This document shows, in pieces, positions 3,298 to 54,587 of a stretch of 54,808 nt of DNA (the first letter of the stretch is position 1; every line of letters starts with the position of its first letter). Source of the DNA: a virus (lineage: Duplodnaviria; Caudoviricetes); IMG/VR virus record IMGVR_UViG_3300044723_000730, positions 1-54,808 of that record; one strand, written 5' to 3'. Both the position numbers and the translations under genes were made by a program. The notes below the pieces were generated by a model, which had not been told where the DNA came from, ran no database searches, and saw only the letters and a list, made by a program, of their open reading frames with translations.

Positions 3298-4206
3298 ATG
3301 GCTATTTCAAGAGCGCAACTCCTTAAGGAGCTACTACCGGGCCTAAACGCCCTATTTGGCCTCGAATACGCTAAGTATGGCGATGAGGCTGCTGAAATCT
3401 TCGAGACTGAATCTTCGGAACGGTCTTTCGAGGAAGAAACCAAGTTGTCCGGTTTCAGTGCTGCACCTGTTAAAGGTGAGGGTTCTGCAATCTCTTATGA
3501 CAACGCGCAAGAAGCTTGGACTGCTCGTTACACACACGAGACAGTCGCTATGGGCTTTTCGCTGACTGAGGAAGCAATCGAAGATAACCTCTACGATTCT
3601 CTTTCTTCTCGCTATACAAAGGCACTTGCCCGCGCTATGGCGTACACCAAGCAAACCAAAGGCGCTGCTATTCTTAACAACGCTTTTGCTGCCGGTACTA
3701 CATATGGTGATGGACAGACTCTCTGTTCCACTGCTCACCCTCTAGTATCTGGTGGTACTAACTCAAACCGTCCTGCTGTTGCGGCTGACCTTAACGAAGC
3801 TTCTCTTGAAGCGGCTGTTATCCAGATCGCTGGTTGGACTGATGAGCGTGGTCTGCTTATCGCAGCTAAGCCTTCTAAGCTGGTTATCCCACCTGCGCTG
3901 CAATTCGTTGCAACACGTTTGTTGGATTCCGAGCTTCGTCCGGGCACAGCGGATAACGACATCAATGCCATGAACAACAACGGTACAATTCCGGGTGGTT
4001 ACACAGTTAACAACTACCTGACTGATACCAATGCTTGGTTCTTGATGACCGACATCCCGAATGGCCTGAAGCACTTTGTCCGCTCTCCAATGCAAACCAG
4101 CATGGATGCAGACTTTGACACAGGTAACAGCCGATATAAGGCTCGTGAGCGATACAGCTTCGGCGTATCTGACCCACTGGGCATCTTCGGTTCACCCGGC
4201 GCTTAA
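3298..4206 (+). CDS. major capsid protein (HK97 fold)
   Basis: AAGGAGG RBS; MAISRAQLLKELLPGLNALFG...EEAIEDNLYD...DFDTGNSRYKARERYSFGVSDPLG pattern; followed by a terminator. Confidence 0.9.
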   Translation: MAISRAQLLKELLPGLNALFGLEYAKYGDEAAEIFETESSERSFEEETKLSGFSAAPVKGEGSAISYDNAQEAWTARYTHETVAMGFSLTEEAIEDNLYDSLSSRYTKALARAMAYTKQTKGAAILNNAFAAGTTYGDGQTLCSTAHPLVSGGTNSNRPAVAADLNEASLEAAVIQIAGWTDERGLLIAAKPSKLVIPPALQFVATRLLDSELRPGTADNDINAMNNNGTIPGGYTVNNYLTDTNAWFLMTDIPNGLKHFVRSPMQTSMDADFDTGNSRYKARERYSFGVSDPLGIFGSPGA

Positions 4207-17209: not shown

Positions 17210-17679
17210 TGGCTATTGCAGAGATAGGAATGCTCATTGCTGGAGCCAGAAAGGCGGTACAGTTCTGCGAAGCGGTGGCCGAGGCAAACGGTGATTTTCA
17301 GCAGTGTGTAGGAAAGATTCAGACCTTCTTTAACTGTGCTGATGCCATTAGAGAGGCGGAAGTAAAAGCTGAGAGTGGAGATTACTTCTCTCGTAACAGC
17401 CCAGAGGCTGAAGCTCTACAAAATCTCAATGCTCGCTACCAAATGGAGCAGATGGAAAATCAGCTCCGCACGTTGATCGTGTGGAATATGTCTGAGCAGC
17501 ACTACAAGGACATGATGCGCGACAGAAAGCGCATACGAGAAAGAAGGATGGCACTTGCAAGAGCTAAGGCCGCTAGGCGTAAGATGATGATCGACGGCAC
17601 GTTTGTGCTGGGATGTGCGGCTTTTGCTATTGGCCTTATTGTGTATACAGCCGTTTTGATTATGGGATATGCGGAATAA
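17209..17679 (+). CDS. membrane protein with C-terminal TM helix
   Basis: Coiled coil, basic stretch, then hydrophobic FVLGCAAFAIGLIVYTAVLI. Confidence 0.6.
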   Translation: MAIAEIGMLIAGARKAVQFCEAVAEANGDFQQCVGKIQTFFNCADAIREAEVKAESGDYFSRNSPEAEALQNLNARYQMEQMENQLRTLIVWNMSEQHYKDMMRDRKRIRERRMALARAKAARRKMMIDGTFVLGCAAFAIGLIVYTAVLIMGYAE

Positions 17680-19776: not shown

Positions 19777-21666
19777 ATGGCAGTTAGAAAATTACAATTC
19801 AAGCCGGGTGTAAACAGAGAAACTACCCGGTATGCCGCCGAAGGTCAGTGGTACGAGACCGACAAGGTACGCTTCAGACGTGGCCTACCCCAGAAAATAG
19901 GCGGGTGGGAGCAGCTTTCTGCTAATACTTACCTAGGTGTAGCCCGGTCACTATTCAACTGGGCCACGCTGTCCGGACAAAACCTCGTAGCTGCTGGTAC
20001 CAACCTCAAATACTACATAGAACGAGGTGGGGCTTACTTCGATGTTACCCCTATTAGAGCAACCACAGCAGCGGGCGATGTTACGTTTGCAGCCGTAAAC
20101 GGCGATGCCACACTTACCGTATCTGATACAGCCCACGGCGCTCTCCAGAATGACTTTGTGACCTATTCTGGTGCTGTTTCGCTAGGCGGCAATATTACGG
20201 CTGACGTGCTCAATCAGGAGTACCAGATAGCTACCATAATTAACGAAAACTCTTACACAATTGAGGCCAAGGACACTAGCGGTAATGAGGTTCTGGCTGA
20301 CGCATCAGATACAGGCAACGGTGGAGCTTCTGTCGTAGGTGCCTACCAGATCAATACAGGTAATGAGATTGAAGTGCCGTTCTCTGGTTGGGGTGCGGGG
20401 CGTTGGGGGTCTGGGACGTGGGGTACAGGTGGTACAACACTGGCTCCTATGCGTATCTGGAGCCAATCTAACTTTGGTGAGGACTTATTCTTTGCCCACC
20501 GTGGTGGGGTACCACTGTACTGGGATGCAAGCTCTGGGGTCGGCACACGGGGCGTATACGTCAGTTCCTTGGGTGGAGCGTCTGATGTACCTACTACAGT
20601 AAATTTAGCGTTTGTATCAGATATATTCCGCTTTGCGTTCTGTTTTGGGGCTAATGACATAGGCACCTCTACACTTGACCCTATGTTAATTCGTTGGTCT
20701 GACCAAGAGGACGTGGCTAACTGGACACCTGCCGCGACTAACCAAGCGGGTAGTTTACGGCTATCAGACGGTACAGAAATCGTTGATGCTATCCAAGCAC
20801 GACAGGAAATATTAGTCTGGTCAGATGCAGCCCTGTACGGCCTACAGTATCTGGGTGCTCCAGAGGTATGGGGAGCGCAGCTTCTAGGTTCAAACATCAC
20901 CATAGCCAGCCCGAATGCGGCTGTGTACTCAAACAATATTGCTTATTGGATGGGTCTGAACACGTTCTACTACTATGATGGTACGGTTAAAACACTACCT
21001 TGTGACGTGCGTAGTTATATATTTGATGACTTTAACCAAGGCCAAGCAGATCAAATAGTCTGTGGTTCTAACGAGCAGTTTGATGAGATATGGTGGTTCT
21101 ACTGCTCTGCTGAAGCCACACAGAATGACCGCTACGTAGTCTACAACTACGTCGAAAACGTCTGGTACTACGGTGATTTGTCTCGCTCAGCGTGGCTCGA
21201 TGCTGATTTACGTGATTTTCCTATAGCTGCTACTTTTGGTAACAAACTGGTTAACCACGAGAAAGGTGTGGATGATAACGAGACCGGCACGCCTACAGCA
21301 TTTACAGCAAATATTACCTCAGCACAGTTCGATCTGGACGATGGCGACCGGTTTATGCTGATTAACCGCATGTTGCCTGATATGACGTTTGACGGCTCTA
21401 CAGCGGATTCTCCTGCGGCTACCATGACTCTGAACCCCTTGGAGAACTCAGGCTCTGGGCGGTATGACCCAGCATCGGTCGGGGGTAACAGCAGTGCAAC
21501 GGTTACCAGAACAGCTACAGTGCCTGTAGAGGCATTTACAGGGCAGGTATATACACGGGTACGGGGTCGGCAGATGTCGATCAAGATTGAGTCTACAGAG
21601 CTAGGAGTAACGTGGAAACTGGGCGCACCTAGGATGGATATGCGGCCTGACGGCAGGAGAGGCTAG
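19777..21666 (+). CDS. tail nozzle / packaged-DNA stabilisation protein (P22 gp10 or tubular-B-like)
   Basis: KPGVNRETT, IRWSDQED, NQAGSLRL, YWMG, EIWWFY, RVRGRQ; size and position. Confidence 0.65.
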   Translation: MAVRKLQFKPGVNRETTRYAAEGQWYETDKVRFRRGLPQKIGGWEQLSANTYLGVARSLFNWATLSGQNLVAAGTNLKYYIERGGAYFDVTPIRATTAAGDVTFAAVNGDATLTVSDTAHGALQNDFVTYSGAVSLGGNITADVLNQEYQIATIINENSYTIEAKDTSGNEVLADASDTGNGGASVVGAYQINTGNEIEVPFSGWGAGRWGSGTWGTGGTTLAPMRIWSQSNFGEDLFFAHRGGVPLYWDASSGVGTRGVYVSSLGGASDVPTTVNLAFVSDIFRFAFCFGANDIGTSTLDPMLIRWSDQEDVANWTPAATNQAGSLRLSDGTEIVDAIQARQEILVWSDAALYGLQYLGAPEVWGAQLLGSNITIASPNAAVYSNNIAYWMGLNTFYYYDGTVKTLPCDVRSYIFDDFNQGQADQIVCGSNEQFDEIWWFYCSAEATQNDRYVVYNYVENVWYYGDLSRSAWLDADLRDFPIAATFGNKLVNHEKGVDDNETGTPTAFTANITSAQFDLDDGDRFMLINRMLPDMTFDGSTADSPAATMTLNPLENSGSGRYDPASVGGNSSATVTRTATVPVEAFTGQVYTRVRGRQMSIKIESTELGVTWKLGAPRMDMRPDGRRG

Positions 21667-28214: not shown

Positions 28215-31200
28215 ATGCCCTTAGCCAAGACGCGTGACCCATCTGGGGAAGAGTTTCAGTATTATGTACCTAAAGGCACAACTTCAGAAGAACGGAAAGC
28301 CCTAGCTAGAGCCGCCTACTTCAAAAGACGCCAAGGTATAGACGTAACTCAACCCCCGCTCCCGCCTGAAAGTACTGTGGGTGGGGAGCTTATGCGTGGC
28401 GCAGAATCACTCGCGTCGGCTTTACGCACTACTGCTGGAGCCGTACTGGGTGACGAAGAAGCAGCGGCCCTTGCTGCACTAGAGCGTAGTGAAGACATTG
28501 GGCAAAAATACGGCGAAGGCCCATCTTTCCAAGCTGTGCGTGAGGCTGAAGGTGTTCTACCTACTATCAGCACCGCGCTAGGACAGATACCACGGGCTTT
28601 AGCGGGGCAAGGTGCCCAGTTAGGCGCTACCGCAGCAGGTGCAGCTACAGGTGCTAGACTAGGTGCTCGATTCGGCCCAACAGGTGCAGTCGTAGGCGGT
28701 GGTCTAGGCGCACTAACTTCCCTCATACCGCAATTTGCTGGCTACAACATTGAACGTCAGGCTGAAGCAGACATAGCCGAGGGGCGTCCTGTAGACATTG
28801 ATACAGGGAAAGCACTAGGAACTGCTGCACTACAGGCTGTGCCGGAACTAGCAGGGCAGTACTTTATATTAGGCCGAGGCGTCATCAACAAGATACTCAA
28901 AGGGGGCCTTGGTGATACGACTGAAGCTGTAGCTAGGGGCAACGCAGAGAAGCTCATACAGACAGCACGGGAAAAATTACTCCCAAGCCTTAAAAAAGGC
29001 GAACGTGGTGTAGGTGCTATAGGTCGTGGTATCGCTACCGGTGCTGCTGCGGAGATACCTACAGAAGTAGCACAACAAGTTCTGGAAAGAGCACAAGCTG
29101 GTCTGGATGTACTGTCTGAAGAAGCCTTAGCAGAATACGGCGAAGCTGCGTATCTGGCAGCAACGATAGGCGGCACTCTTGGCCCCATCGGTACTATATC
29201 TGGTCGAAGTGCCGCAAGGCGGCAGCGTGAAGAACTAGCGGCTCGTACAGGGGAAGTACCCACTGAACCAACAGTAGAACCAGAAGCAGAAGTTGTAGAG
29301 ATAGTTGAGGAAGCCCCCGCTGAACCCCCTGCTGCACCACCAATAGAAACAGAAGTTGATCTTACTGAGTTAGGAGAAGCCTCTGCTGACATAGACGCAG
29401 ACGCTATTCAACAGCAAACTCTTCTTGCAGAAGAGCAAAGGCAATTAACCGCCGAACAAATCAGAAAAATACAGGAAGAAGATGTCAACTTTTTGGCAGG
29501 CGAGCCTGATCCCGATATTGAGTTTGACCAACCGTTTCTTGGAAGACCCGGAGAAGGTGTAACCGAGGAGCAAATACAGCAAGCGTATGCTGCCGAACAA
29601 GAAGCTACTGAGGAAGCGACTGAAGAAGCTCCTGTAACATGGGAGCAGGACATTGACCAACGAAATGCTGTTGATGAAGCTAAACGAAAAGAAGAGTTTG
29701 AAGCACTAACGGCGGAAGAACAAAAACCAACCGAAGTAGTCGAGCAAGAACAAAAAGTAGAAGCAACGGATTTAGAAACAGAAGCAGAGGCATCTACTGT
29801 AGCTCAAGACCCCGTGTCTGAAACTGTTAAAAAAGAAGAACAAGATGCAGAAATAGACGCACAAGTAGATGCGCCCCCTAGATACAGAACTAGCGCAAAA
29901 GTAGCAGTACAACGAGCGTTAGATGAAAAGAAGCAACGCCTCCAAGAGAGACAAGAGAACGTCGCTACTGCACAACAAGAACGGGTAGCCGCTACTGTCC
30001 CCACTGTAGAAGAAGCGGGTATAGACACAAAAACGTTAGCACAAAAGTTTGATATAGCTGAGACTGCGGCGGAAAGAGATTCACTTATATCTGGTATAGC
30101 TTTTAACAGCGTGTATGGCAAACCAGAAGCAAAAGCTACTGCATTAGCAGAAATAGCAGAGATAAGCACAAGCCCTGAATTTTCTGAGCAAATAAAAAGA
30201 GATGTAATCGCTGCCCAAAATAAAATAAGGCTTGATAATAATTTAGAGTTACCTGCCAAAGCTCTAGCTTCTACCTCAATGGGGTTAGAACCAGAAGTAA
30301 TGGAACTTCTTCGTGACGGTAGGTTGGTTGACGCTCTTGATACGTTGGGAAGGAACAAAGACAAGACTGTATCAAAAGTAGCCCGTGCTGTTAGTGCAGC
30401 CATATTAAAAGACGGTGGCACAAAAGTTACGCTTGAGTCTGGTTTGATGTCAACTGACGGGCGGCTGTTGGCTGGTACGTTTGATCCCAAGACCAACACG
30501 ATAATTATTAACAGTGATTTAAACCCCACCACTCATGTTCTTTTGCATGAGGCGCTTCATGCTGTCACTTCCCACGAGATAGCAAACAAGGCCAGCCCAA
30601 TAACCAAACAGCTACAGACACTTTTCGATAACGTCAAAGACAGACTTGATAGTTCTTATGGTGCTACTAGCTTAGATGAATTTGTAGCCGAAGCGTTTTC
30701 AAACCCAGAGTTCCAAGCAAAGCTTGCCTCTATGAACATCAAAGGCGAAAAGCTAGGTGCATGGGAAAGATTTACAAACATAATTAAAAATCTTGTTCGT
30801 AAAATACTAAAACAACCTATTGCCCAAGTAACTTCAGCGCGAAACGAAGTAGACAAACTAGTCACAGAGTTGATGTCACCGGCTCCAGAATATCGAGATG
30901 CAGCACGGTTAAACATGGCAGCTACAGCCAAAGAAGAAGGTAAACTGTTTGGGAACATACTAAACAGTTATGGTGGCCCTGTAACAACAGACATGATCAA
31001 CACGTACAACGACACCATGCCGGGGCTATCAAATACAGCCAGAGATTACTTCTTACGTGCGTTACCACTCAACTCTATTGCAGATTTTATTAAAGACAGC
31101 AATAACCCTGTATTAAGAGAGCTTGGAGCAGAGTTAGATGAGTTGTTTAAAGTCATCCAGCAAAAGAATGGGTCACGACAACTGTACCTACGTAGGACTA

Positions 31201-34133
31201 AAGATACTGCTAAACAACTAGATGCTGTATTCAAAGAGCTTGGTAAAGAACAACGCGATCTTTTTAACAAAGTTGTTATGGAAAGCACGTTGCGTCGTGT
31301 TGATCCTACTAAAGAAAGAAGTTACTACGAAGGTTTTCGATACAGCTATGTGGATCAGGATGGTAAAGAGTTTCGTTCCAAGCCATATAAAACAAAAGAG
31401 CTACGTGACGCTGCAAGAGAAGCAGACAAAGGTTTAGAGCGAGCCAAGAAAGAACATCCTACTGGTAATGTTGCGGTGGCTGTAACCAACCCAAGCGAAG
31501 GTAAGTTAGAAGAGTACACTCGCGTTAAAAATGACTTCAAAAAATTAAAACCTGAAGCGCGAAAAGCATATGAAACATTACGTGACGCTTATAGTGAAGC
31601 TTACACAGAGCTGAGAGTTACTATAGTAAACCGGATAAATGCTATCAAGACAGATACTGAGGAAGCAGTACAAGCAAAACAAGCTTACAAGGATAAGATA
31701 TTACTAGAACTTCTCAATAAAGAATCTATCGAGCCGTACTTCCCGCTGTATAGAAAGGGTGACTTCTGGTACAACCATATGGGCTTTGATCCATATACTA
31801 ATAACCCAGAAACTTTCAAAATTGCTTTTGAGTCTGACAAAGAACGACAAGCTTACGCAAGGTTGATTGAAAGTGACCCTGAGTTGAGACAACAAATCCT
31901 CAACAGCAAAGCAACAACTATAGTAGATATTAGAGAGGCTGCTAGAAAAGAGGCTTTGGATAGTGGTGCAACCCCTCAAGAAGCTGAAGAAGCAGCATTC
32001 AGGGCAGCGTTAGAACCAACATTTGCAGAACGCCCAACAAATGCTCGTGGAGAAAAGACTGCGGTAGACCTTCAGTGGGCGCAAGGGTTACTTGCTGATG
32101 TAAGACGTAAGAAAGATGCTGCTGGAGAAAGAGCCAAAGCTAAAGCTTTAGAAGATGGTTTAAGTGAAGCAGAAGCAGACAAAATAAAAGACCAAACACT
32201 GAGAGCCGGTAACGCTATAGATTCGATAGTACAGGATGCGTTGTTAGATGCTATGCCTGAACGATCTTTGGAGAGAGCTTTTAAGCGCAGACAGAACGTC
32301 CGTGGCGCACAGATGGACGCTATAGATGTATTCCGACAGCGTATGCCAGCTTTCTTAGGGCAGGTAGACAAGCTCAGATTTGACCAACCTCTCAGACAAA
32401 GACGCAATAACTTAGACGCTATTGCGAGCAAAGCAAGGAATACTCCGGACTTAGAGTACGCCAAACAAATAGCGAGAAAGGGTGGAGAGTATATAGACTT
32501 TGTTAATGACCCGCAGATAGCCACTTGGTCACGCGCTTTAAAGAGTGCGGGTTTCTTTATGACTTTGGGTTTTAACTTGTCTTCTGCTGTAGTCAACTCA
32601 TTTATCTTACCGGTTGTAGTGTTCCCATTCTTAGCCGGAAAGTACGGCATCGGGCCAGCTAGTGCCGCCATGTATCGCGCTATGCGGATGTATATGGGTA
32701 CCGGTATGCGTCGTAGACTAGAGCCATTCGGAGGAGCGCCCGAAGGTACGGAGTTTGATGGCCCATCATTAGCTAACCTCGACCCAGAAAACTTACCCGA
32801 AGAGTACAGGCAATATAAGCCACTAATAGAAGAACTTGTTTCCAGAGGAGCAGCTAACACTTCTACTGTAGGTGACATGCTTGATATAGATAACCCAATG
32901 GGTGGTCGCCTTGAAAGGGGTATGACTAGAGTTAACGGTATTTCAGGTTTCTTGTTCCACCAAGGCGAACGCTTAAATCGCCAAGTTACTGCAATGGCTA
33001 TTTATGATTTGGCAATGGATGCACAGAAAAAGAAGAACAAAGGTGCTGACATTACTGAAGAACAAAGAAACAAAATATTAGACGACGTGTTTCTCGATAT
33101 GGAACACACCAACAGTGGTGCGTTAATTGAGACTGCGCCTAAGCTTGCTCAAAGTAATATCGGCAGTGTGTTACTTATGTACAAACGCTTTGGTGTATCT
33201 ATGGCGTATCTCCAAGCCAAGATGGCAAGGCAAGCGTTGAAGATTGGTAACTACAGTGAAAAAGAAACTGCGGAGGCTAAGAAACAATTGGTTGGATTGT
33301 TCGGTATGTCCGGCCTACTGGCAGGAGTACAGGGGCTACCCGCATACGGCCTTATCGCTGGTGTAATGAATCAGTTCTTCTTGGATGATGAAGACGATGA
33401 CTTTGATAGTCTGGTTGCATCTTACATAGGAGAAGGCCCGTACTCTGGAGCACTAAACGAAATATTTGGCTTAGACATAGCCCCACGTATCGGTATGAGC
33501 AACTTATTGTTCAGAACACTACCAAACAAAGAGTATGAAAGTAATTTAGCGTACTGGGCTGAACTTGGTGGTGGCCCACTTCTTGGTATCGCACAAAGAA
33601 TGGATCGTAGCTATGACCTACTCATGGACGGAGAGTACCGCCGTGGTATAGAAGGATTTGTACCTTCGGGTTTAGGTGGCCCTCTGAGAAGCATTCGTTA
33701 TGCAACAGAGGGAGCCACTACGTTGCGTGGTGATCCTATCGTAGAGGATATGACCCCTTTATCTATCGCAGGACAATTTTTTGGGTTTGCTCCAGCAGGA
33801 TACATAAAACAGTTAGAGATCAACGCTCGTGATAAACGAATAGACCGTAAGATCAACGAAACTCGTACCAGACTTCTTCGTCAGAGATATGTAGCCTTTA
33901 GAGTAGGTGACTTTGAAGGTGTCCGCGACGTAGATCAAGAGATAAACGAGTTTAACCAACGTAACCCCGAGGTAAGAATTACTGGGGATACTAAGGCTAG
34001 GTCGTTACGACAACATAAGATTACTAGTCAAATAGCGCGTCAACTGGGTGGTATAACGATCAGCCCACGTAGGTTGGACAAAGTGATGCAAAAGAGACTA
34101 GAAGAGATGGGCGAAAGAGACTTTTTCTTGTAA
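28215..34133 (+). CDS. giant internal virion / polyvalent protein with zincin-like metallopeptidase motif
   Basis: 1972 aa; HEALH followed by EFVAE; Gly/Ala-rich membrane-like N-terminal helices; last gene of the late arm. Confidence 0.7.
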   Translation: MPLAKTRDPSGEEFQYYVPKGTTSEERKALARAAYFKRRQGIDVTQPPLPPESTVGGELMRGAESLASALRTTAGAVLGDEEAAALAALERSEDIGQKYGEGPSFQAVREAEGVLPTISTALGQIPRALAGQGAQLGATAAGAATGARLGARFGPTGAVVGGGLGALTSLIPQFAGYNIERQAEADIAEGRPVDIDTGKALGTAALQAVPELAGQYFILGRGVINKILKGGLGDTTEAVARGNAEKLIQTAREKLLPSLKKGERGVGAIGRGIATGAAAEIPTEVAQQVLERAQAGLDVLSEEALAEYGEAAYLAATIGGTLGPIGTISGRSAARRQREELAARTGEVPTEPTVEPEAEVVEIVEEAPAEPPAAPPIETEVDLTELGEASADIDADAIQQQTLLAEEQRQLTAEQIRKIQEEDVNFLAGEPDPDIEFDQPFLGRPGEGVTEEQIQQAYAAEQEATEEATEEAPVTWEQDIDQRNAVDEAKRKEEFEALTAEEQKPTEVVEQEQKVEATDLETEAEASTVAQDPVSETVKKEEQDAEIDAQVDAPPRYRTSAKVAVQRALDEKKQRLQERQENVATAQQERVAATVPTVEEAGIDTKTLAQKFDIAETAAERDSLISGIAFNSVYGKPEAKATALAEIAEISTSPEFSEQIKRDVIAAQNKIRLDNNLELPAKALASTSMGLEPEVMELLRDGRLVDALDTLGRNKDKTVSKVARAVSAAILKDGGTKVTLESGLMSTDGRLLAGTFDPKTNTIIINSDLNPTTHVLLHEALHAVTSHEIANKASPITKQLQTLFDNVKDRLDSSYGATSLDEFVAEAFSNPEFQAKLASMNIKGEKLGAWERFTNIIKNLVRKILKQPIAQVTSARNEVDKLVTELMSPAPEYRDAARLNMAATAKEEGKLFGNILNSYGGPVTTDMINTYNDTMPGLSNTARDYFLRALPLNSIADFIKDSNNPVLRELGAELDELFKVIQQKNGSRQLYLRRTKDTAKQLDAVFKELGKEQRDLFNKVVMESTLRRVDPTKERSYYEGFRYSYVDQDGKEFRSKPYKTKELRDAAREADKGLERAKKEHPTGNVAVAVTNPSEGKLEEYTRVKNDFKKLKPEARKAYETLRDAYSEAYTELRVTIVNRINAIKTDTEEAVQAKQAYKDKILLELLNKESIEPYFPLYRKGDFWYNHMGFDPYTNNPETFKIAFESDKERQAYARLIESDPELRQQILNSKATTIVDIREAARKEALDSGATPQEAEEAAFRAALEPTFAERPTNARGEKTAVDLQWAQGLLADVRRKKDAAGERAKAKALEDGLSEAEADKIKDQTLRAGNAIDSIVQDALLDAMPERSLERAFKRRQNVRGAQMDAIDVFRQRMPAFLGQVDKLRFDQPLRQRRNNLDAIASKARNTPDLEYAKQIARKGGEYIDFVNDPQIATWSRALKSAGFFMTLGFNLSSAVVNSFILPVVVFPFLAGKYGIGPASAAMYRAMRMYMGTGMRRRLEPFGGAPEGTEFDGPSLANLDPENLPEEYRQYKPLIEELVSRGAANTSTVGDMLDIDNPMGGRLERGMTRVNGISGFLFHQGERLNRQVTAMAIYDLAMDAQKKKNKGADITEEQRNKILDDVFLDMEHTNSGALIETAPKLAQSNIGSVLLMYKRFGVSMAYLQAKMARQALKIGNYSEKETAEAKKQLVGLFGMSGLLAGVQGLPAYGLIAGVMNQFFLDDEDDDFDSLVASYIGEGPYSGALNEIFGLDIAPRIGMSNLLFRTLPNKEYESNLAYWAELGGGPLLGIAQRMDRSYDLLMDGEYRRGIEGFVPSGLGGPLRSIRYATEGATTLRGDPIVEDMTPLSIAGQFFGFAPAGYIKQLEINARDKRIDRKINETRTRLLRQRYVAFRVGDFEGVRDVDQEINEFNQRNPEVRITGDTKARSLRQHKITSQIARQLGGITISPRRLDKVMQKRLEEMGERDFFL

Positions 34134-34157
34134 AAAAATGCCCCCACGAGGAGGGCA
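34132..34157 (-). terminator. Rho-independent terminator for - strand transcription
   Basis: Minus strand reads TGCCCTC-CTCGT-GGGGGCA then T7. Confidence 0.75.
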
Positions 34158-34185
34158 ATGATCTCTCTACGAGAACGATGAGAGC
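34132..34185 (-). ncRNA. candidate trans-acting antisense small RNA
   Basis: Own promoter and terminator; seed UCAUCGUUCUCGUA is complementary to RBS/start regions of several early genes. Confidence 0.6.
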
Positions 34186-34187
34186 GC

Positions 34188-34217
34188 AATGTACCACAAT
34201 ATAGTGTGGTAGAACAA
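34188..34217 (-). promoter_or_regulatory. extended -10 promoter with operator-like inverted repeat
   Basis: TTGTTC-N18-TACATT with TG-G before the -10; TACCACA-N6-TGTGGTA at 34192-34211. Confidence 0.55.
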
Positions 34218-34227
34218 CGTAGAACTA

Positions 34228-37095
34228 CTATATGTCGGTTTCTTTTGGTGTTTCTACGGTCTTTTCCTCGCTCCAATCCAGTTTAATAACATACGTGGGC
34301 GGTAAATTAAGTCCCGGTATGCCGGTGCTCAGCCTGTACTTAGCATCCCTGCCCCCCAAATCTTCGATTACCAGACGCCGCATGTGGCTGTATTCCAGCT
34401 TTCTCTGACCACACCACTTCTTGAACGGGGTAGGCAACATGTACATCACATTAGTGTCCACCTCTATCCTAGCTACAATCTTGTATAAAGGTTTTTCATA
34501 CTCTGTTGCATAAACCGATAGCTCTGGGTCGTCCGTAGATTCCGTACTATCTATTTTTATTACGTTGCGATTGTTTTCGGCTAGGTACTGGGCAAGTATG
34601 TCCCTTATATCCACTACAGCAGCAGTGGTGTCGCTACGTGCTTTCCGTAGCATTTTGCATACCCAATCCTCTAGGTTGGCTACGTTAAGATCATGCAGCC
34701 CTATCCGTTGTGCAATACTCATCCCAGTTAATGCAGCGGCGGCTTGCCATAACCAGTAGCGATTTTGTGCTGTTAGCCCCGTACGCTCTATGAGTTTATT
34801 GACGTAAGTAAGCAACAAACCTTCAGCAGCTTTCTGATTCTTCACTAACTTCTGTATATAAAGTTCTCCAGCCTCCCCGTAGTTGTTATCTAACAACTGA
34901 TTTAGTTCGATGCCCTCTTTGGTAGTGTCAGCGTCTTCTTTGAGTTTTACCAAAGTTTCCGCTTCTAACAGACGTTGCGCTTCTCCTTTCGGATGCTGTC
35001 TAAAGTCGGCTGATATGGTGTCGAGGATGCCTGTATTACCGCTTGTCGGTACCAGAGTAGCCCACGGCTTGCCTCTGTAACGCTCTACAGTCTCCCCAGA
35101 GTTACCCCGTAAACGATTCCTTTGCATACCCTGACTGACTGCATAAGCAAAGCTACTAAGGTCTTTACCCTCTTTATTAGACAACTCGTCTAAGTACACA
35201 ACGATATTCTTGTATGTCTCTGTAACTTTCCACACAGAAGCAAACGTATCCTCTCCTTTCTGTACTACCAACGAAGGGTTACCCCATACTGAAGCCCCAG
35301 CAAACTGACCAGTAGACTTACCAAAGCCGGACTCAGTGCTTTTCAAATGAAAGATACTGCCAGCTATCTTTGGTGCAAAGATCATCAATGGTGCAGCGAA
35401 TGACATAGCAAACATATACTGGTGGGGTTCAAACCCCGGCTTATCAAAAAACTTAGGGATTTTTTTCCATTCTTTTAAAGTCCCAGCCTTATCAAAATGA
35501 GCAAAGTACCCCTCTGTTATTGAACTAGGATAGTTAGGCTTAATTTCTTTAGGAAAAATCTCTCTATCTCCTAGAATGAAAGACTTGTTATTTTCAGTCC
35601 AACCAAACTGCTCAGCTACAGTATGCTCGTCCATATGTTCTTCAGCGTGATCCACAAGAGCCGCTACAAAGTTCATAAGTAGCGCAGGATTCATAGTGAA
35701 AACACCACGTTTAGTCAGCTCTACTTTAAATGTCTCCCTACCAACAAGTTTATAAGCCGGTATCATGAAGTCCCGTATACCATGCCGCTTAGTATGGTGA
35801 CGAAATATAAAAGAAGTCCCAGCTACCCTGTCGCGTAATTTGCGTATGATATACAGGTCAGTACTGAGTATTTCCCTCACCTCAGTATTCCCATCTTTTA
35901 TCTCTCTATGCCCTATACCCCCGCCTTCGTATCTGAAATACGGCTTCGGATATTTGGGGATAGTTACTGTAGAAGGTGCGGCCTCCGTGTTTTTTGTGTC
36001 TAACGCAACCTCACTATTGTCTGGAACTTCTACTGTGTAGCTTTCCTCAGACGCCTCGTTTGGAACTACGGCTAGACTTATCGGACTTTTAAATCTGTCG
36101 TTATCCTTATGTGGGCAACCTTCACAACCCTCTGGGTACTCTTCTTCAAATCTTGCACAACCGTGCGGTGCCTCGATGGTACGCGCTACGTTATTTGTCT
36201 CTTCTTCGGTGTAATCTTTATACCCACTAGATATAGCGTGTACGTTCTCCATACCACGCGCATCGCTTATATCTATATCGGAGAACTTTGCTATGGACAT
36301 AACGTGCGTCCACAACGCGTAGCTTATTGAATCAGGCTCACGTATGGCTCTGTCTATCTGAGCGCAGCCCGTACCGTTTACTGTTTTATCTAGCAGTACT
36401 TCAAATCTTTTTATCACTCTGTTGCCCAGAGCGTTCTTCATATCCTCCTGATCTTCTTCTGAGAATTCTTGTGTAGAAAGAACTGGTATCAAATCTTCTG
36501 GCAGCTTGGACGAAAACTCTTCCAAACTAACTACGCCATCATTGTGGTTATACACAGTGCAATCTAAAGGGGTGCTAGTCTTGTGGTTGCGTGTCCCCGG
36601 TACGCGTAATATCCGAGCAGCATCCGCAGTAACTTGTACGTCTGCTTTAAACCCTGCATGTTTGCAGGTTCTCTTTAGTTGTTCCGCAACGGCAACCCAT
36701 TCGTCTTTGCCATACGGTTTATCTAACACCCAGTAAACATGCCAACCACGCCCTGAATCAACAAGGATAGATTGTTTTGGTAGGGTGTAGCGTTTTATAA
36801 ACTCTTTTAAGGCTGCGTAAGCCTCTGTCTTAGTTGGGTAGTCTTTTTCTTCACCGCAATCTATATCGAGAAATAAAGTCTTTAACTGCTTAACATTGTT
36901 CTTTTCGCGCTTTTCTGTGTTAAACGTAGCCAGAGCTACATACACATTATTGTCATTATCATTAGCAGTATTTATATGGGATAGAGCATCTTCTTTTGTT
37001 TCTGAAAACTTTACATCAATCCCATCTTTCATTCCGACTGTGCAATAAAAACCCTCACTTCCTAAGACAGTATTTAAAAACTGTCGAGTATCCAT
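34228..37095 (-). CDS. DNA primase-helicase (RepB/AEP-like primase, DUF927-like region, P-loop helicase)
   Basis: FLDID, DSGRGWHVYW, RILRVPGTRN primase motifs; Cys cluster; FGW; ESGFGKST Walker A; LDE Walker B. Confidence 0.85.
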   Translation of the reverse strand: MDTRQFLNTVLGSEGFYCTVGMKDGIDVKFSETKEDALSHINTANDNDNNVYVALATFNTEKREKNNVKQLKTLFLDIDCGEEKDYPTKTEAYAALKEFIKRYTLPKQSILVDSGRGWHVYWVLDKPYGKDEWVAVAEQLKRTCKHAGFKADVQVTADAARILRVPGTRNHKTSTPLDCTVYNHNDGVVSLEEFSSKLPEDLIPVLSTQEFSEEDQEDMKNALGNRVIKRFEVLLDKTVNGTGCAQIDRAIREPDSISYALWTHVMSIAKFSDIDISDARGMENVHAISSGYKDYTEEETNNVARTIEAPHGCARFEEEYPEGCEGCPHKDNDRFKSPISLAVVPNEASEESYTVEVPDNSEVALDTKNTEAAPSTVTIPKYPKPYFRYEGGGIGHREIKDGNTEVREILSTDLYIIRKLRDRVAGTSFIFRHHTKRHGIRDFMIPAYKLVGRETFKVELTKRGVFTMNPALLMNFVAALVDHAEEHMDEHTVAEQFGWTENNKSFILGDREIFPKEIKPNYPSSITEGYFAHFDKAGTLKEWKKIPKFFDKPGFEPHQYMFAMSFAAPLMIFAPKIAGSIFHLKSTESGFGKSTGQFAGASVWGNPSLVVQKGEDTFASVWKVTETYKNIVVYLDELSNKEGKDLSSFAYAVSQGMQRNRLRGNSGETVERYRGKPWATLVPTSGNTGILDTISADFRQHPKGEAQRLLEAETLVKLKEDADTTKEGIELNQLLDNNYGEAGELYIQKLVKNQKAAEGLLLTYVNKLIERTGLTAQNRYWLWQAAAALTGMSIAQRIGLHDLNVANLEDWVCKMLRKARSDTTAAVVDIRDILAQYLAENNRNVIKIDSTESTDDPELSVYATEYEKPLYKIVARIEVDTNVMYMLPTPFKKWCGQRKLEYSHMRRLVIEDLGGRDAKYRLSTGIPGLNLPPTYVIKLDWSEEKTVETPKETDI

Positions 37096-37116
37096 AAGTC
37101 ATATGTCGTAGAGAAA

Positions 37117-37136
37117 GGACGCCCCGAAGGGCGTCT
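37117..37136 (-). terminator. UUCG hairpin terminator/attenuator between SSB and primase
   Basis: AGACGCCC-TTCG-GGGCGTCC then TTTCTCT (weak U tract, probably leaky). Confidence 0.75.
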
Positions 37137-37158
37137 CAAATTAAAGGAACAAAAGTTA

Positions 37159-37851: not shown

Positions 37852-37920
37852 ATCGCTCTCGTATTAACAAGGATTAAATTGCTTTGGCTTTTATAGCCAA
37901 GGTTAGGTATTACAGTACTA

Positions 37921-39402: not shown

Positions 39403-39439
39403 TACATCGTTCTCCTTTATATTTTAATTAGGGGGAGTG

Positions 39440-41004: not shown

Positions 41005-41307
41005 TTACCCTACTAGTTTATCTGGGTATTTAGCAGCCATTGCTAGAAGTTCGTTTTTATTTTCAATGGCTTCCGGATGATCGCCGGTAACGCAGAGGCT
41101 TCTTAAAGCTTCTTCTGGGCTGTACTTTAAGTTGTACCCTCTAGGGTACGCACCTTCTACGGTACAATGAGAAGACCTATGCCCTTCTCCCCCGCCTAAT
41201 CCGTGATAGTGTCTGTCCCCGCATTCTTTACACACAAAGACATATTGCCTGCCACGTATGTAACAATCGACTGTAGGTATTTCATCTTGCATGACATCAT
41301 TCTCCAT
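41005..41307 (-). CDS. Cys/His-rich hypothetical protein (start may be 41292)
   Basis: CKECGDRHYHG...HRSSHC. Confidence 0.6.
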   Translation of the reverse strand: MENDVMQDEIPTVDCYIRGRQYVFVCKECGDRHYHGLGGGEGHRSSHCTVEGAYPRGYNLKYSPEEALRSLCVTGDHPEAIENKNELLAMAAKYPDKLVG

Positions 41308-45588: not shown

Positions 45589-45789
45589 TCATTCCAAATG
45601 TGCCACACTACCCGCTGCAATAGTCGGTTGCGGGGTTTGTAAATTAGAGCTAGAAAACTTTTTACCACGCATCCATTGGTGGTACTTACCACGTACTTCA
45701 GCACGGGTGGGGGCGTACCAGATTAGTTTATCTTCGCCCCTACGTAATTCTAGCCGCCAAAAATCTTTACTGATTTCTTTTATAATCAT
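45589..45789 (-). CDS. hypothetical protein
   Basis: GAGGAAGAG RBS. Confidence 0.65.
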   Translation of the reverse strand: MIIKEISKDFWRLELRRGEDKLIWYAPTRAEVRGKYHQWMRGKKFSSSNLQTPQPTIAAGSVAHLE

Positions 45790-45803
45790 CGTTCTCTTCC
45801 TCT

Positions 45804-46368: not shown

Positions 46369-46501
46369 CGTCCCAGTCCTCTTCTCGCCCTACATCTGGG
46401 TCAGGTTCATCCAACCACCACTTGCGTCCGTAGTCTTCATCCCCTACACGGTTCGGATCGTCCGGCAAATCTCGCTCGTTGTTATACACTCTGCCCATCA
46501 T
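46349..46501 (-). CDS. small acidic protein, about 50 aa (absent from ORF track)
   Basis: AGGAG RBS; MMGRVYNNERDLPDDP... Confidence 0.5.
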   Translation of the reverse strand: MMGRVYNNERDLPDDPNRVGDEDYGRKWWLDEPDPDVGREEDWDDVRDND

Positions 46502-46700
46502 CATTCTCCTGTATATCTTTCAGTATCTCTCGCCTTAGTCGCTTACGATCTTCGAGCGAGCATTTAGTTGCGATCTTGATGTCGCTTAGTTTTAGTTTGT
46601 AACTCGACGCGTTCCAGTACAGTGCAGCTTCTGGATCAGTAACCAACATGTACTGCCACGTCACCCCGTCGATGTCTAGGTAAAAGGATTCACCGTTCAT
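46482..46700 (-). CDS. hypothetical protein
   Basis: Coupled (TGATG); GAGG RBS. Confidence 0.65.
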   Translation of the reverse strand: MNGESFYLDIDGVTWQYMLVTDPEAALYWNASSYKLKLSDIKIATKCSLEDRKRLRREILKDIQENDDGQSV

Positions 46701-47890: not shown

Positions 47891-48911
47891 ACTCAGTAGG
47901 GGTCAAGAACACCATGCCGTGCTTACCTCCTGTATGTAGGAAATCCTCAAGCATGAACGCACCGACGTTGGGTATGTACTTGTAATTATCCCAATTATTA
48001 ATCAAGTTCTCCTCATTGATCTGCATCGCAGCCAACTTGGATCGGATTATATACGGCATCCCGCTTGCAGCTTCATGCACGGTGAGTTTGTCAACAAAAC
48101 CTTGTGGGTCGATATATCCTTTTTGCTCTGTAGACTTCACTGTGTAACAACGGGCCACGTCATCATCACCAAATTGTGAAACAAATACAGGAACCAATGA
48201 GTTAGCTTCGTCTATTTGTTCATGTAATGGCTTGATAGTTTCCAGATGTTCCTTCGCTCTCTCCACAAGTTGTTCACTTGCTGGTATGTACATCTCCATG
48301 TTGCCGGTAAGCGCGTGAGCCAACCACTCCATCAACAGGGGTTTGTTGTCCTCATACCTAACGTCTGACCAAAAATTAGCTACTTCTTTGTTAAGTGCAA
48401 CTTGGTCTGTCTCCAAAACATCCTTAGACATAATCGCCATCTTGTTATAGGAATGGGCAACGATAAGATCAAAAGTTACAGCGGGGCATCTAAGCACTTC
48501 GTTAATTACTTTTTTAATATCGTTCGTGCGAATAGCAGTTTTGTCTGTAAGGCTAGTCGGGTAAGGGTTGTTACTGTTCGCTCGTTGCTTGTGTATGAAC
48601 GGCGAGACCACCCAATACCTCACTGTATCGACACCCAACATGTTCTCTTCCATAGACCATGTGATCAGGGCGCGGAACATAAGGTCGCCTTTGCACTTAA
48701 TACCAAGAGCGTTAAACGCGGTCGGCTCTTGATGGAAACGATTCTCATGGCTCATTTGTATGGGCGTGGTCTCGTATCCCACACACTTGTTTATCGCAGT
48801 TTCAATATCTTTAAGTTCCTCGTCCACACTCAACTCAGCCTTCGGATAGCTGTGCGGATTGAAGTACTTCAGTAAATGTCTGTTATTCAGAAAGTGTGTT
48901 ACTCGCATCAT
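47865..48911 (-). CDS. hypothetical early protein, 348 aa
   Basis: AGGAG RBS; C-terminal MPYIIRSKLAAM...IPNVG resembles the neighbouring gene. Confidence 0.75.
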   Translation of the reverse strand: MMRVTHFLNNRHLLKYFNPHSYPKAELSVDEELKDIETAINKCVGYETTPIQMSHENRFHQEPTAFNALGIKCKGDLMFRALITWSMEENMLGVDTVRYWVVSPFIHKQRANSNNPYPTSLTDKTAIRTNDIKKVINEVLRCPAVTFDLIVAHSYNKMAIMSKDVLETDQVALNKEVANFWSDVRYEDNKPLLMEWLAHALTGNMEMYIPASEQLVERAKEHLETIKPLHEQIDEANSLVPVFVSQFGDDDVARCYTVKSTEQKGYIDPQGFVDKLTVHEAASGMPYIIRSKLAAMQINEENLINNWDNYKYIPNVGAFMLEDFLHTGGKHGMVFLTPTEFAEVFPSE

Positions 48912-48918
48912 CGTTCTC

Positions 48919-50154
48919 CTATATAAGTACGTCTAGCTTTTTGCCGACGCTTGGTTTTACTTCTCTGTTGTTCAGGACTGCCCATAACACAGGCATTGTC
49001 CACGTACCCCATCCTCCCCACAGATAGCCGTCAGTCAGTACCACGACGCCTTCGGCTTGGATGTTGTTCTGCTCTATGTACTCGGGTACACACGTTACGT
49101 TAGTGCCGCCACCTCCCTTCGGCTTAGTTGTGTTAACAAGTTCAGACAGTGGTATGGCTGTCTCACCATAGACTTCGTGCGAGCGAACCTCAGTATCCCA
49201 GTAAATCACATGTACGTTATTGATTGCCAGTGTCTCAATAATGTTACGTACCACCGACATAAACTTAGTGAGTTGTTCAGACTGAACACTGCCTGACGTA
49301 TCGATAGAGATGACAATATCATTCAGCTTGTCCTGTATACGGCTTGGTCTGATGATGTTTATCGGCATGTACTTGCGGTTCGGAACGCGGAACGTACCGT
49401 CCTCACCCCCGCTGCACGTATCAACGAACCACTCTTGGATGATGTCCTCCCATGGGATAACTACCTCAACAAGTTCCTCAAGGGTTTTGTTACCCCCCTT
49501 GCCGGACTTCTCTGCTGCAAGTAGCCCCTGCCGTATGGCTTCCTGTATATCGTTGCTGAGTTCGCGCTGCTCCTCTTCGGATAGTTTCTCGAACGCTTCG
49601 ACATCGTGATCGTCCATGCTTCCTTGTTCTGCACTTCCTGCACTTCCTGCACGTCCCTCGTCATCCGTGGGTGACATAGGGTCACCACCAGCTCCACCTT
49701 CCTCTTCTTCCTTGTACAGAAGTTTCCATATCTCACCCTCAAGCATCCCGTCATACTTGCTATCGTACAACGCACCGTCAGGTAGCTTGGCGAACCCATC
49801 CACCCGATTCTCTGCCACGATCTGCCCGTTGATGCGGTAGTCCCACACCACATTCGCCAGCTTGGGATTGATCTTGTGCATCCATAGGTAGGCCGCTGCG
49901 TGCATATAGATGATGTGGTATAGCTCGTGGATGAATACACCCCGTATCTCTTCATCGGTCAGGGTTTCGACAAACTCGTACCCGATCACAATATCTCTGA
50001 AATTTGTGTAGGCGGTAGGTACACCGCGCTCCACCCGTATCTCACCCAGTTGTGCTACCCCCGCCATCGCTGCGTATCGGAGGTGATCCAGCACTCTGGT
50101 GATCTCACGGTTCACCCGTTGCTCGGGTGTTAGTGCCATATCTAATGCAAACAT
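48919..50154 (-). CDS. HExxH metallopeptidase-like plus vWA domain protein (DUF2201-like)
   Basis: PTAYTN, HELYH, DTSGS MIDAS, GGGT, LTDG; GAGG RBS before 50154. Confidence 0.85.
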   Translation of the reverse strand: MFALDMALTPEQRVNREITRVLDHLRYAAMAGVAQLGEIRVERGVPTAYTNFRDIVIGYEFVETLTDEEIRGVFIHELYHIIYMHAAAYLWMHKINPKLANVVWDYRINGQIVAENRVDGFAKLPDGALYDSKYDGMLEGEIWKLLYKEEEEGGAGGDPMSPTDDEGRAGSAGSAEQGSMDDHDVEAFEKLSEEEQRELSNDIQEAIRQGLLAAEKSGKGGNKTLEELVEVVIPWEDIIQEWFVDTCSGGEDGTFRVPNRKYMPINIIRPSRIQDKLNDIVISIDTSGSVQSEQLTKFMSVVRNIIETLAINNVHVIYWDTEVRSHEVYGETAIPLSELVNTTKPKGGGGTNVTCVPEYIEQNNIQAEGVVVLTDGYLWGGWGTWTMPVLWAVLNNREVKPSVGKKLDVLI

Positions 50155-50173
50155 TTCATCGTCCTCGTAATTA

Positions 50174-54535: not shown

Positions 54536-54587
54536 TTTGAACTCCAAATAAAAGTTAAACAAAGCGTTCCTTACTGGAACGATTACT

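Follow-up and report, generated by a model that had tools for sequence, protein, structure and literature searches.

A candidate phage small RNA predicted to pair with ribosome-binding sites of its own replication module

Enterobacterial trans-acting small RNAs (sRNAs) that use a 5' seed and end in a terminator, like RybB, OmrA/B and the prophage-encoded DicF, are small, have their own promoter and combine a conserved single-stranded 5' seed with a U-rich linker and a Rho-independent terminator. In Firmicutes, the host-encoded C-rich or UCCC-loop sRNAs RsaE/RoxS, RNAIII and LhrC pair with Shine-Dalgarno (SD) sequences using seeds in hairpin loops. Phages are known to encode antisense RNAs that block translation at the ribosome-binding site (RBS), i.e., P1/P7 c4, P22 sar, P4 CI and N15 CA (PMC12197685). 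These each have a single antirepressor or immunity target, adjacent or opposite, and a role in lysogeny or immunity. Base-pairing sRNAs that act in trans and shape the lytic cycle are described for vibriophage VP882 (VpdS) and for lambda (PreS, also called LPR1), and VpdS is reported to influence phage and host mRNAs alike (PMC12197685 and 10.1101/2024.10.31.621285). Both phages are temperate, and the targets best described for the two sRNAs are genes or sRNAs of the host.

The locus described here lies in a window of 54,808 nt, the whole stretch of viral DNA that was analyzed, where two convergent gene arms leave a gap of 94 bp. On the - strand, this gap reads as an extended -10 element, a 19-nt block and a terminator, so that promoter and terminator of a putative transcription unit are both present in the intergenic region:

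34230..34228, - strand: stop codon of the primase-helicase gene
34212..34217, - strand: weak -35-like hexamer TTGTTC, 18-nt spacer to the -10 element
34188..34196, - strand: extended -10 promoter element TG-G-TACATT (from sequence and family geometry)
34181..34187, - strand: 7-nt stretch GCGCTCT that separates the -10 element from the predicted start; 5' arm of a hairpin proposed earlier
34162..34180, - strand: 19-nt seed block CATCGTTCTCGTAGAGAGA, invariant in aligned relatives
34132..34157, - strand: Rho-independent terminator TGCCCTCCTCGTGGGGGCA plus T7 (terminator scan)
34132..34180, - strand: predicted sRNA of ~49 nt, 5' end placed by promoter geometry, 3' end by the terminator
34133, + strand: stop of the 1972-aa gene

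We consider it likely that this unit encodes a trans-acting phage sRNA of ~49 nt whose 5' seed occludes the RBSs of some mRNAs from the replication module of the same phage. Such an sRNA would resemble RybB, OmrA/B and DicF in size, anatomy and the possession of several targets at RBSs, but its gene belongs to an uncultured phage of apparently virulent type whose own replication module forms the predicted regulon, and ~49 nt is at the short end. With RsaE/RoxS, RNAIII and LhrC it shares a CU-rich, anti-SD-like seed and (as predicted here) multi-target translational repression, whereas its seed would begin at the free 5' end and run through spacer and AUG. In place of the single targets of P1/P7 c4, P22 sar and their kind, there are 3 to 8 here, scattered and as much as 16 kb distant, with no immunity context seen among the genes scanned. 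VpdS and PreS show no sequence or structure relation to it, and what it is predicted to pair with are start regions of phage genes, where seed and target covary.

The promoter, seed and terminator of the original prediction were all found in the sequence where it had placed them, and the anatomy together with the geometry of a wider family supports its proposal of a promoter-seed-terminator unit encoding a candidate sRNA. The terminator has a 7-bp stem (G:T allowed; 5 pairs are G-C) capped by a 5-nt loop and followed by T7, and the same element at 34132..34157 closes the early operon. Between relatives, one pair of the stem is U-G, C-G or U-A. An Hfq-dependent sRNA would be expected to show a U-rich 3' tail and an A/U-rich site beside its terminator; the predicted sRNA ends in U7 and has an AUCAUU/UUUA linker, and may or may not bind Hfq. 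The seed block CAUCGUUCUCGUAGAGAGA is complementary to GAGRAYGAUG-type sites with its nt 1-13 and to the primase leader with its nt 9-19, and folding allows a weak 4-bp hairpin between nt 7-10 and 16-19. No family-wide conservation was seen for the TTGTTC hexamer (best TTGACA match 1-4/6 across 54 family sequences), and the L017 group is missing a -35-like hexamer. The option of a seed in a hairpin loop is not supported: the proposed 5' arm GCUCUC follows the -10 element but precedes the predicted start, and it is not conserved, the 7-nt stretch reading GCGCTCT, GCGCTTT, GCCCCCT, GCCCGTG or GCGCCTA among relatives.

A pattern scan returned ~40 distinct variants of the cassette, which is made up of TGnTAnnnT, CATC exactly 7 nt further on, an unpaired 5' end, a small hairpin and a terminator, pointing to a large family, apparently not yet described, in related uncultured phages. 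The distance from TAnnnT to the downstream CATC is exactly 7 nt in 48/54 distinct family sequences (43 of these with TGn), which is why we take the seed to be the free 5' end of the transcript. The invariance of seed nt 1-4 and 6-10 in this metagenome set is uninformative because the search pattern fixed these positions. Sixteen of the 18 variants folded share one layout, in which 4-8 free nt at the 5' end precede hairpin 1 and a U-rich linker leads on to the terminator, while in L156 and L123 part of the 5' end is paired. The arms of hairpin 1 covary (UUCUC/GAGAA, UCCUU/AAGGA, CUCC/GGAG and UCUC/GAGG). A covariance model search further uncovered the L050/L051 variant with seed CAUCAUUCUCC, whose orthologue of the 134-aa target gene (see below) has GGAGAATGATG.

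The same geometry bears on whether a free sRNA exists at all. Located after the stop codon of the primase gene and ahead of the terminator of the operon, the block is necessarily part of any early mRNA that reads through, and it might act in cis, as 3' UTR of this polycistronic message, by folding back on upstream starts, or an sRNA might be processed from that 3' end without a promoter of its own. In L050/L051, the best -10-like element by sequence reading is indeed found 26 nt upstream rather than 7. We nevertheless regard this explanation as improbable, since the extended -10 at fixed 7-nt spacing is hard to explain without transcription starting at the seed. The trans-acting and cis 3' UTR modes are compatible with each other.

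A copy of the motif on the + strand, GAGAACGATG, precedes an 8-codon frame after the last late gene and might be read as the RBS of a mini-ORF (MRAQCTTI), the length of this frame being constant in several relatives. That reading, to which we assign practically no weight, is already refuted by the L017, L024 and L028 group, where TAG directly follows ATG, and by the L052-type cassette without any ATG.

No closer relationship to described RNAs emerged when cmscan was run with Rfam 15 on 33000-35500 at E up to 10: five weak unrelated matches were obtained, none of them a C4 antisense RNA. The two that overlap the sRNA reach 16.0 and 15.4 bits (gathering thresholds 88.5 and 70), and the strongest (35313-35396; 22.4 bits, gathering threshold 38) lies outside it. 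The analogy to P1 C4, P4 CI and N15 CA drawn in the original prediction thus finds neither an Rfam match nor an immunity or lysogeny context among the genes scanned. It is true that these RNAs likewise block RBSs by antisense pairing (PMC12197685). An immunity or carrier-state RNA of this kind is still very improbable here: no Rfam family of the kind was matched in 33000-35500, and the targets are replication-module genes across 16 kb rather than a single downstream antirepressor. With regard to the genomic context typical of the C4 family, the sRNA gene comes after that of the primase and has targets dispersed over the replication module, and no antirepressor, integrase or repressor was found among the early-arm proteins scanned, which cover part of the small ORFs. 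One genome scan bearing on this question gave mostly chance matches.

The targets listed in the original prediction, the primase-leader site among them, all exist, with 10-13 pairs and at most 1 G:U each:

50157..50169, - strand: vWA/metallopeptidase gene (start 50154), UACGAGGACGAUG, 13 pairs, 1 G:U, -20.9 kcal/mol
48909..48918, - strand: start of the 348-aa gene, GAGAACGAUG, 10 Watson-Crick pairs
46499..46508, - strand: start of the 50-aa gene, GAGAAUGAUG, 10 pairs, 1 G:U
45787..45796, - strand: start of the 66-aa gene, GAGAACGAUG, 10 Watson-Crick pairs
41295..41304, - strand: 95-aa gene (start 41292), GAGAAUGAUG, 10 pairs, 1 G:U
39405..39414, - strand: 134-aa gene (start 39402; phrog_13900 / DUF7307-like), 10 Watson-Crick pairs
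37852..37863, - strand: Gp2.5-like SSB gene (start 37851), UACGAGAGCGAU, 12 pairs, 1 G:U
37106..37116, - strand: primase leader, UUUCUCUACGA, 11 pairs, 1 G:U, with seed nt 9-19

The ATG of the motif is out of frame and 5 nt ahead of the true start in 3 targets, among them the 95-aa gene. The primase-leader site is not SD-like and lies 10-14 nt upstream of the ATG of a gene without SD.

From these features, we infer a mechanism in which the unit is transcribed and represses rather than activates its targets. A host-type extended -10 promoter would drive the sRNA from a start at or within 1 nt of 34180, and the terminator that closes the early/replication operon would form its 3' end. The free 5' end would be the seed CAUCGUUCUC, its CU-rich portion loosely held in the 4-bp hairpin; it would pair with the SD-to-start region of the vWA-peptidase, 348-, 134-, 95-, 66- and 50-aa gene and SSB mRNAs, and the 3' half of the block with the primase leader. 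A duplex within the ribosome footprint would most likely block 30S binding and so lower translation and possibly also mRNA stability; the presumed biological role is to control the replication module in dosage or timing. Promoter use and any dependence on a chaperone are assumptions. The proposal of a coordinate shut-off of early and replication translation is overstated, since the predicted pairing reaches a subset of genes (8/33 in the window; 3-4 in relatives) rather than all early genes, with the DNA polymerase, SNF2 helicase and nuclease genes of the window not being among the targets.

At least 10 contiguous pairs with at most 1 G:U were found at 8/33 early-arm start regions and at 0/41 late ones, with gene starts taken from a home-made heuristic caller; the predicted complementarity to early and replication but not late starts is therefore borne out. 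Match lengths are bimodal (4-8 for non-targets, 10-13 for targets), and duplex energies of -14 kcal/mol or better are reached at 10/33 early and 0/41 late starts (Fisher 1.3e-4). Under the criterion of at most 1 G:U, the seed block is the top hub of the ~110,000 19-mers of the window, while 500 shuffled seeds averaged 0.03 start matches and never exceeded 1. The early strand contains GAGRA-NN-ATG with NN as CG (x4), TG (x2) or AC (x1), i.e., a non-random SD-to-ATG spacer that is YG in 6/7, and GAGRAYGATG occurs 7 times compared to 0.26 in shuffles, though as a pattern picked after data inspection. The enrichment anticipated over shuffled controls and beyond SD plus ATG composition thus held, and the complementarity of the seed exceeds what SD plus ATG would lead one to expect.

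This result depends on the scoring. With Watson-Crick pairs only, the seed is unexceptional and ties with other 19-mers (4 matches at k=9, 3 at k=10) that are antisense to late-gene starts with a common ATGGCT context, and at k=11 the antisense of one target RBS outscores it. A genome-wide scan of duplex energy singles out only the 50154 site; energy alone fails to identify the targets because many non-start sites reach -18 to -20.6 kcal/mol. SD strength is slightly greater at early than at late starts (control medians -7.5 vs -6.4, p = 0.03).

The original prediction had made conservation and seed/target covariation in relatives its own test, and both were found. The 19-nt block is identical in 8/8 distinct aligned relatives, down to 54% primase identity, and the block TGTGGTACAKTGC at the -10 element is kept over the same range, while the 7 nt upstream and the flanking coding DNA vary. 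Across five genomes, the fraction of all-identical positions in 30-column windows is 0.63-0.77 over the sRNA and at most 0.50 upstream. The relatives' own seeds match 4 early starts per genome, and no late start is matched by the genome's own seed in any of the 14 genomes tested (14/14). In a 98%-complete 61-kb genome with an A-seed, which serves as independent replication, at least 9 pairs were found at 3/37 same-strand and 0/50 opposite-strand starts (maximum of 2 in 300 shuffles).

The identity of the targets turns over between lineages. The vWA/metallopeptidase site is restricted to the window lineage and G005, the 50-aa gene site also has a copy in G005, and the 348-aa gene site is retained in G005 and G002 but absent in G004. 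Targets unique to G004 are the SNF2 helicase and the 152-aa gene, and G002 alone has a 122-aa gene as a target. The 66-aa orthologues of six genomes show 10, 9, 10, 10, 7 and 10 pairs, and the SSB site is present in 6/6 S1-type genomes at a variable distance of 0 to 6 nt from the ATG. In six S1 genomes, TCTCTACGA has one copy on the early strand per genome, always in the primase leader. The target most widely retained across the family is the 134-aa gene.

A real sRNA could also have its main role outside the phage, either on host mRNAs with similar starts or in general SD competition as a mimic of the 16S rRNA 3' tail, with the phage matches being secondary. The family seed is CU-rich and SD-complementary, and that of L051 reads AUCAUUCUCCUUA, which we take to be close to a textbook anti-SD tail. 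SD-like seeds of other lineages match 4, 4 and 6 early starts of G004, equal to or above G004's own seed. Moreover, the known phage sRNAs PreS and VpdS act on host genes (PMC12197685 and 10.1101/2024.10.31.621285). We judge this explanation unlikely because phage target letters track seed nt 5 (see below) and because, in 6/6 S1 genomes, the non-SD site in the primase leader has its complement in the 3' half of the seed, which is specific to S1. The absence of late-gene matches in 14 genomes likewise points to specific pairing, not to a general competition for SDs.

Across the family, seed nt 5 tracks the letter of the target: A-seeds face T in 17, C in 1 and A in 2 cases, and G-seeds face C in 24 and T in 6, counts that are phylogenetically non-independent with only 2 seed changes resolved, the number that the seed letter needs on a quick primase tree. 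At the 134-aa orthologue, A-seed rows have T in 11 cases and C in 2 (4 unalignable), and G-seed rows have C in 6/8, the remaining two being mis-picked starts whose true site is also C. Exceptions are L166 and L133, which combine an A-seed with target C, as well as indels in four orthologue RBSs. Sister lineages differ as predicted, with G and target C in L158 and A and target T in L156/L229.

Phage early mRNAs can have protein translational repressors, e.g., T4 RegA, and from the motif alone recognition by RNA and by protein are indistinguishable. A RegA-like phage protein or a host protein might thus bind the shared GAGRAYGAUG, the gap being a terminator plus an unrelated conserved DNA element with fortuitous complementarity. 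This seems quite improbable to us, as it needs a perfect complement of 10-13 nt to arise by chance within a promoter-terminator cassette and, in addition, a coincidental match of the other half of the block to the primase leader. The pattern at nt 5 (A:U vs G:C/G:U) obeys base-pairing rules, and the covariation within the hairpin and within the terminator speaks for an RNA.

Returning to a trans-acting sRNA, a broader reading that we offer more tentatively, and would not back at even chances, is that of a widespread, hitherto undescribed family of ~50-nt phage sRNAs with an extended -10 promoter exactly at the seed and an anti-SD-tail-like 5' end that co-evolved with private start regions of the replication module. 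In phages of virulent type, these sRNAs could form an RNA regulon directed at the phage itself, setting the timing or dose of replication proteins. Converging late transcription, which would make a perfect antisense of the sRNA, may silence it late in infection.

The 54.8-kb viral record (estimated completeness 89%) is organised as two converging arms. The early arm, on the minus strand, is devoted to replication and nucleotide metabolism and encodes an AAA ATPase, a vWA/metallopeptidase, a cell-wall hydrolase, an SNase-like nuclease, DNA polymerase A, a PD-(D/E)XK nuclease, an SNF2 helicase, a Gp2.5-like SSB and a 955-aa primase-helicase. Cultured phages are all distant from this virus: the best primase matches, to Pseudomonas and Rhizobium phages, have 24–25% identity, and positions 33600–34800 had no nucleotide match in the phage collection. 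The arms, the 94-bp gap between them and the primase leader comprise the following elements:

up to 34133, plus strand: late genes, the last being a 1972-aa gene
28215–34133, plus strand: 1972-aa late gene, its stop codon within the A-run of the terminator
~54.5 kb down to 34228, minus strand: early genes
37096–37158, minus strand: 63-nt primase-helicase leader, without recognisable Shine-Dalgarno (SD) sequence, carrying the conserved TCTCTACGA
34230..34228, minus strand: primase stop codon
34217..34212, minus strand: TTGTTC, followed by an 18-nt spacer
34194–34209, minus strand: inverted repeat CCACA-CTATAT-TGTGG, filling the sRNA promoter spacer
34196..34188, minus strand: extended -10, TG-G-TACATT
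34187..34181, minus strand: GCGCTCT, preceding the block
34180..34162, minus strand: 19-nt block CATCGTTCTCGTAGAGAGA (the seed), then TCATT
34157..34132, minus strand: terminator TGCCCTCCTCGTGGGGGCA plus seven T

The feature observed in this gap by the original prediction is real, and its anatomy is, as read from the sequence, that of a 5′-seed sRNA (about 49 nt) ending in a terminator. The hairpin lacks a T tail in the plus direction and the terminator thus serves the minus strand only, its T-run overlapping the stop codon of the late gene. No plus-strand terminator follows the 1972-aa gene, and late transcripts probably continue, in antisense orientation, through the sRNA and the primase gene. 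Converging late transcription, having no terminator of its own at the gap, would yield an RNA fully complementary to the sRNA; a speculative corollary is that the sRNA does its work before late transcription takes over. Of 10 public sequencing runs with related sequence, two of them recorded as RNA, four were inspected as assembled contigs; contigs of relatives span the gap, and being free of strand and end information they speak neither for nor against transcription of the predicted sRNA. The inverted repeat is retained in close relatives (with one change in locus L003), is absent from L012 and the L017 group, and could be an operator or a primase-mRNA 3′-end hairpin.

The sRNA had been proposed to pair with the start regions of distant early genes, and every site on that target list is present at its position. 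Taking start regions as -25 to +8 of heuristic gene calls, the block pairs over at least 10 contiguous positions (at most one G:U) at 8/33 early versus 0/41 late starts, and by this measure no other 19-mer on either strand is as good a hub. Match lengths at early starts are bimodal, with 25 starts at 4–8 pairs and 8 starts at 10–13 pairs, and the enrichment held up against shuffled seeds (500 shuffles; mean 0.03 and maximum 1 start at ≥10 pairs). A duplex energy of -14 kcal/mol is reached by 10/33 early and 0/41 late starts (Fisher 1.3e-4; 300 shuffles, mean 0.67, maximum 4). A duplex-energy scan of the whole genome singled out only the vWA site and is too noisy for target definition. Under Watson-Crick-only criteria, the block is only level with other 19-mers, most of which are antisense to late starts that have an ATGGCT context in common. 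Many late genes (e.g., those at 3298, 8858, 10263 and 17209) have a common A-ATG-GCT (Met-Ala) start context, and it is for this reason that antisense 19-mers of late starts match 3–4 other late starts. The 14-mer target pattern also occurs on the plus strand with 3 mismatches each at 17534–17547, 19852–19865 and 54572–54585.

The energy scan and the Watson-Crick ties weaken the enrichment, as does a control in which the SDs of early genes were slightly stronger than those of late genes. The matches exceed SD-plus-ATG composition in their choice of NN, in out-of-frame ATGs, in a mobile site at the SSB gene and in a non-SD site at the primase. The early-strand occurrences of GAGRA-NN-ATG have CG at NN in four cases, TG in two and AC in one. 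In three targets (vWA/metallopeptidase, 95-aa and 134-aa genes, with starts at 50154, 41292 and 39402), the ATG of the motif lies out of frame, 5 nt upstream of the true start; this ATG (GATGNNATG) opens frames of 5, 33 and 1 codons, respectively. The SSB site keeps its sequence among relatives even though it lies anywhere from 0 to 6 nt from the ATG. At the primase leader, TCTCTACGA is pyrimidine-rich rather than SD-like and pairs with seed nt 9–19, which accounts for the invariance of all 19 nt and not just the first 10. This 9-mer has one early-strand occurrence per genome in 6/6 genomes, always 10–14 nt before the primase ATG; a second copy is found in genomes G001–G003 on the strand opposite the early genes, ~4.96–4.99 kb upstream of the sRNA.

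Relatives were collected by primase-based and seed-based searches, and the 19-nt block is identical in all of them at 54–100% primase identity. The coding DNA flanking the cassette of extended -10, seed, hairpin and terminator diverges among relatives (sliding-identity comparison of 17 rows), and terminator variation is compatible with pairing, one pair being U-G, C-G or U-A. The 7 nt preceding the block vary (GCGCTCT, GCGCTTT, GCCCCCT, GCCCGTG or GCGCCTA), so the GCUCUC...GAGAG hairpin that the original prediction offered as one way of presenting the seed, in its loop, is not conserved. A plus-strand mini-ORF was excluded as a reading of this region, the L017 group having ATG-TAG.

Each of five further genomes has 4 early starts matched by its own seed, and no late start is matched in 14/14 genomes examined. 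Orthology clustering separates stable targets (SSB, the primase leader, a 66-aa gene and the 134/147-aa gene) from lineage-specific ones, namely the vWA-peptidase in the window and G005 only, the SNF2 helicase and a 152-aa gene in G004 only, and a 122-aa gene in G002 only. Such turnover is the pattern expected for a regulon, here a predicted one, under an invariant regulator. NCBIfam searches with four target proteins found nothing, and an atlas look-up placed the 134-aa protein, the most conserved target, in viral hypothetical clusters only, with DUF7307 on 13–14% of members.

Beyond these relatives, a covariance model of the cassette recovered a variant in L050/L051 (42–43% primase identity) with the seed CAUCAUUCUCCUUAUUAAAGGA, where the 134-aa orthologue bears GGAGAATGATG and a 114-aa gene bears ATAAGGAGAATGA. 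Pattern scans of metagenome, genome and viral contigs, with seed nt 1–4 and 6–10 fixed, yielded ~40 distinct cassette variants; ~40/114 rows of the metagenome and genome scans were chance matches outside the family, and 73 rows passed the filter. The 18 hits of the genome-contig scan came from unrelated taxa and were mostly chance-like, and a pattern anchored on the -10 and terminator returned the same 13 loci from viral contigs, with no seed variants. One true family member with a primase, L179, sits on an 8.9-kb genome contig binned to a Verrucomicrobiales MAG; this is probably a phage contig and was not taken as host evidence. The primase C-terminal part is present at 137 family loci, giving 75 distinct proteins.

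The shared plan of the family reads TGnTAnnnT, 7 nt, CAUC(A/G)UUCUC, a short hairpin with the CU-rich seed end as its 5′ arm, a U-rich linker, GCCCCC-loop-GGGGGC and a U-run. In 48/54 distinct sequences, the -10 lies exactly 7 nt upstream of CATC (43 of these 48 with TGn), while the -35 is weak; this fixed spacing predicts that transcription starts at the seed. Two hairpins with a free 5′ end of 4–8 nt form in 16/18 variants folded, with L156 and L123 pairing part of the 5′ end, and the arms of hairpin 1 covary across folded variants.

Seed nt 5 is either A or G and divides the family into A-seed and G-seed lineages, and seed and target letters covary, with exceptions (L166 and L133). Among gene starts that precede the sRNA, with each distinct context counted once, the letter opposite seed nt 5 is T in 17, C in 1 and A in 2 cases in A-seed lineages, and C in 24 and T in 6 cases in G-seed lineages (Fisher 4e-7, computed ignoring relatedness). 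This asymmetry is what base-pairing predicts, because A pairs only with U and G with C or U. One orthologous gene found throughout (44–70% identity) has T in 11 and C in 2 A-seed rows (4 unalignable), and C in 6/8 G-seed rows, the other two having wrongly picked starts, with C again at the true site. A quick primase tree requires two changes of the seed letter, and between the sisters L158 (G-seed, target C) and L156/L229 (A-seed, target T) the target letter follows the seed as pairing would predict. The early-only pattern recurs at smaller scale in a near-complete 61-kb A-seed genome, with matches at 3/37 same-strand versus 0/50 opposite-strand starts (shuffles, maximum 2). No systematic extension of pairing past seed nt 10–11 was seen in A-seed lineages.

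Each of the eight window sites falls inside the ribosome footprint, from -25 to +3 relative to a start codon, so occlusion of 30S binding would be the most likely effect of the predicted pairing; at the primase leader, which lacks an SD, the effect may go either way. While the core of the original prediction stands, its hairpin-loop seed and its analogy to immunity RNAs do not: a Rfam search over the gap region found no family, and with neither a model match nor an immunity context among the genes scanned the sRNA is no member of the c4/CI/CA family. Its predicted way of working resembles that of enterobacterial 5′-seed sRNAs, and its predicted outcome that of c4 and sar, two antisense RNAs of phages.

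Known phage sRNAs, as described in the main text of a 2025 review (PMC12197685), come mostly from temperate phages and act in cis on one neighbour or on host genes. That text and searches of an open-access library yielded no precedent for this sRNA family, nor for a phage replication module with a multi-target regulon directed at itself. If phages carry a conserved trans-acting sRNA with a multi-gene regulon inside their own replication module, the timing of their development gains a further, post-transcriptional layer; support for such a regulon comes from the turnover of targets and from base-pair covariation in dozens of uncultured lineages. Compact and recognisable by pattern (fixed promoter geometry, a 10-nt seed and two hairpins), the family offers a natural set of seed/target variants for studying sRNA regulon evolution, and the predicted regulation is directly amenable to two-plasmid reporters.

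More distant loci (L052–L060 and L062; 32–34% primase identity) carry an analogous cassette in which the CU-rich seed is a different one. With one start-region match per locus, these cassettes are suggestive only. At these loci, a small extra gene follows the primase and the cassette lies ~250–330 nt past the primase stop, with a TATGAT-like -10, a hairpin with a UUCUCCC loop, single-stranded GUUGUUCUCCUCUCU and a terminator; in L062, a UCCUCUCCUCCCCUCCU run is present instead.
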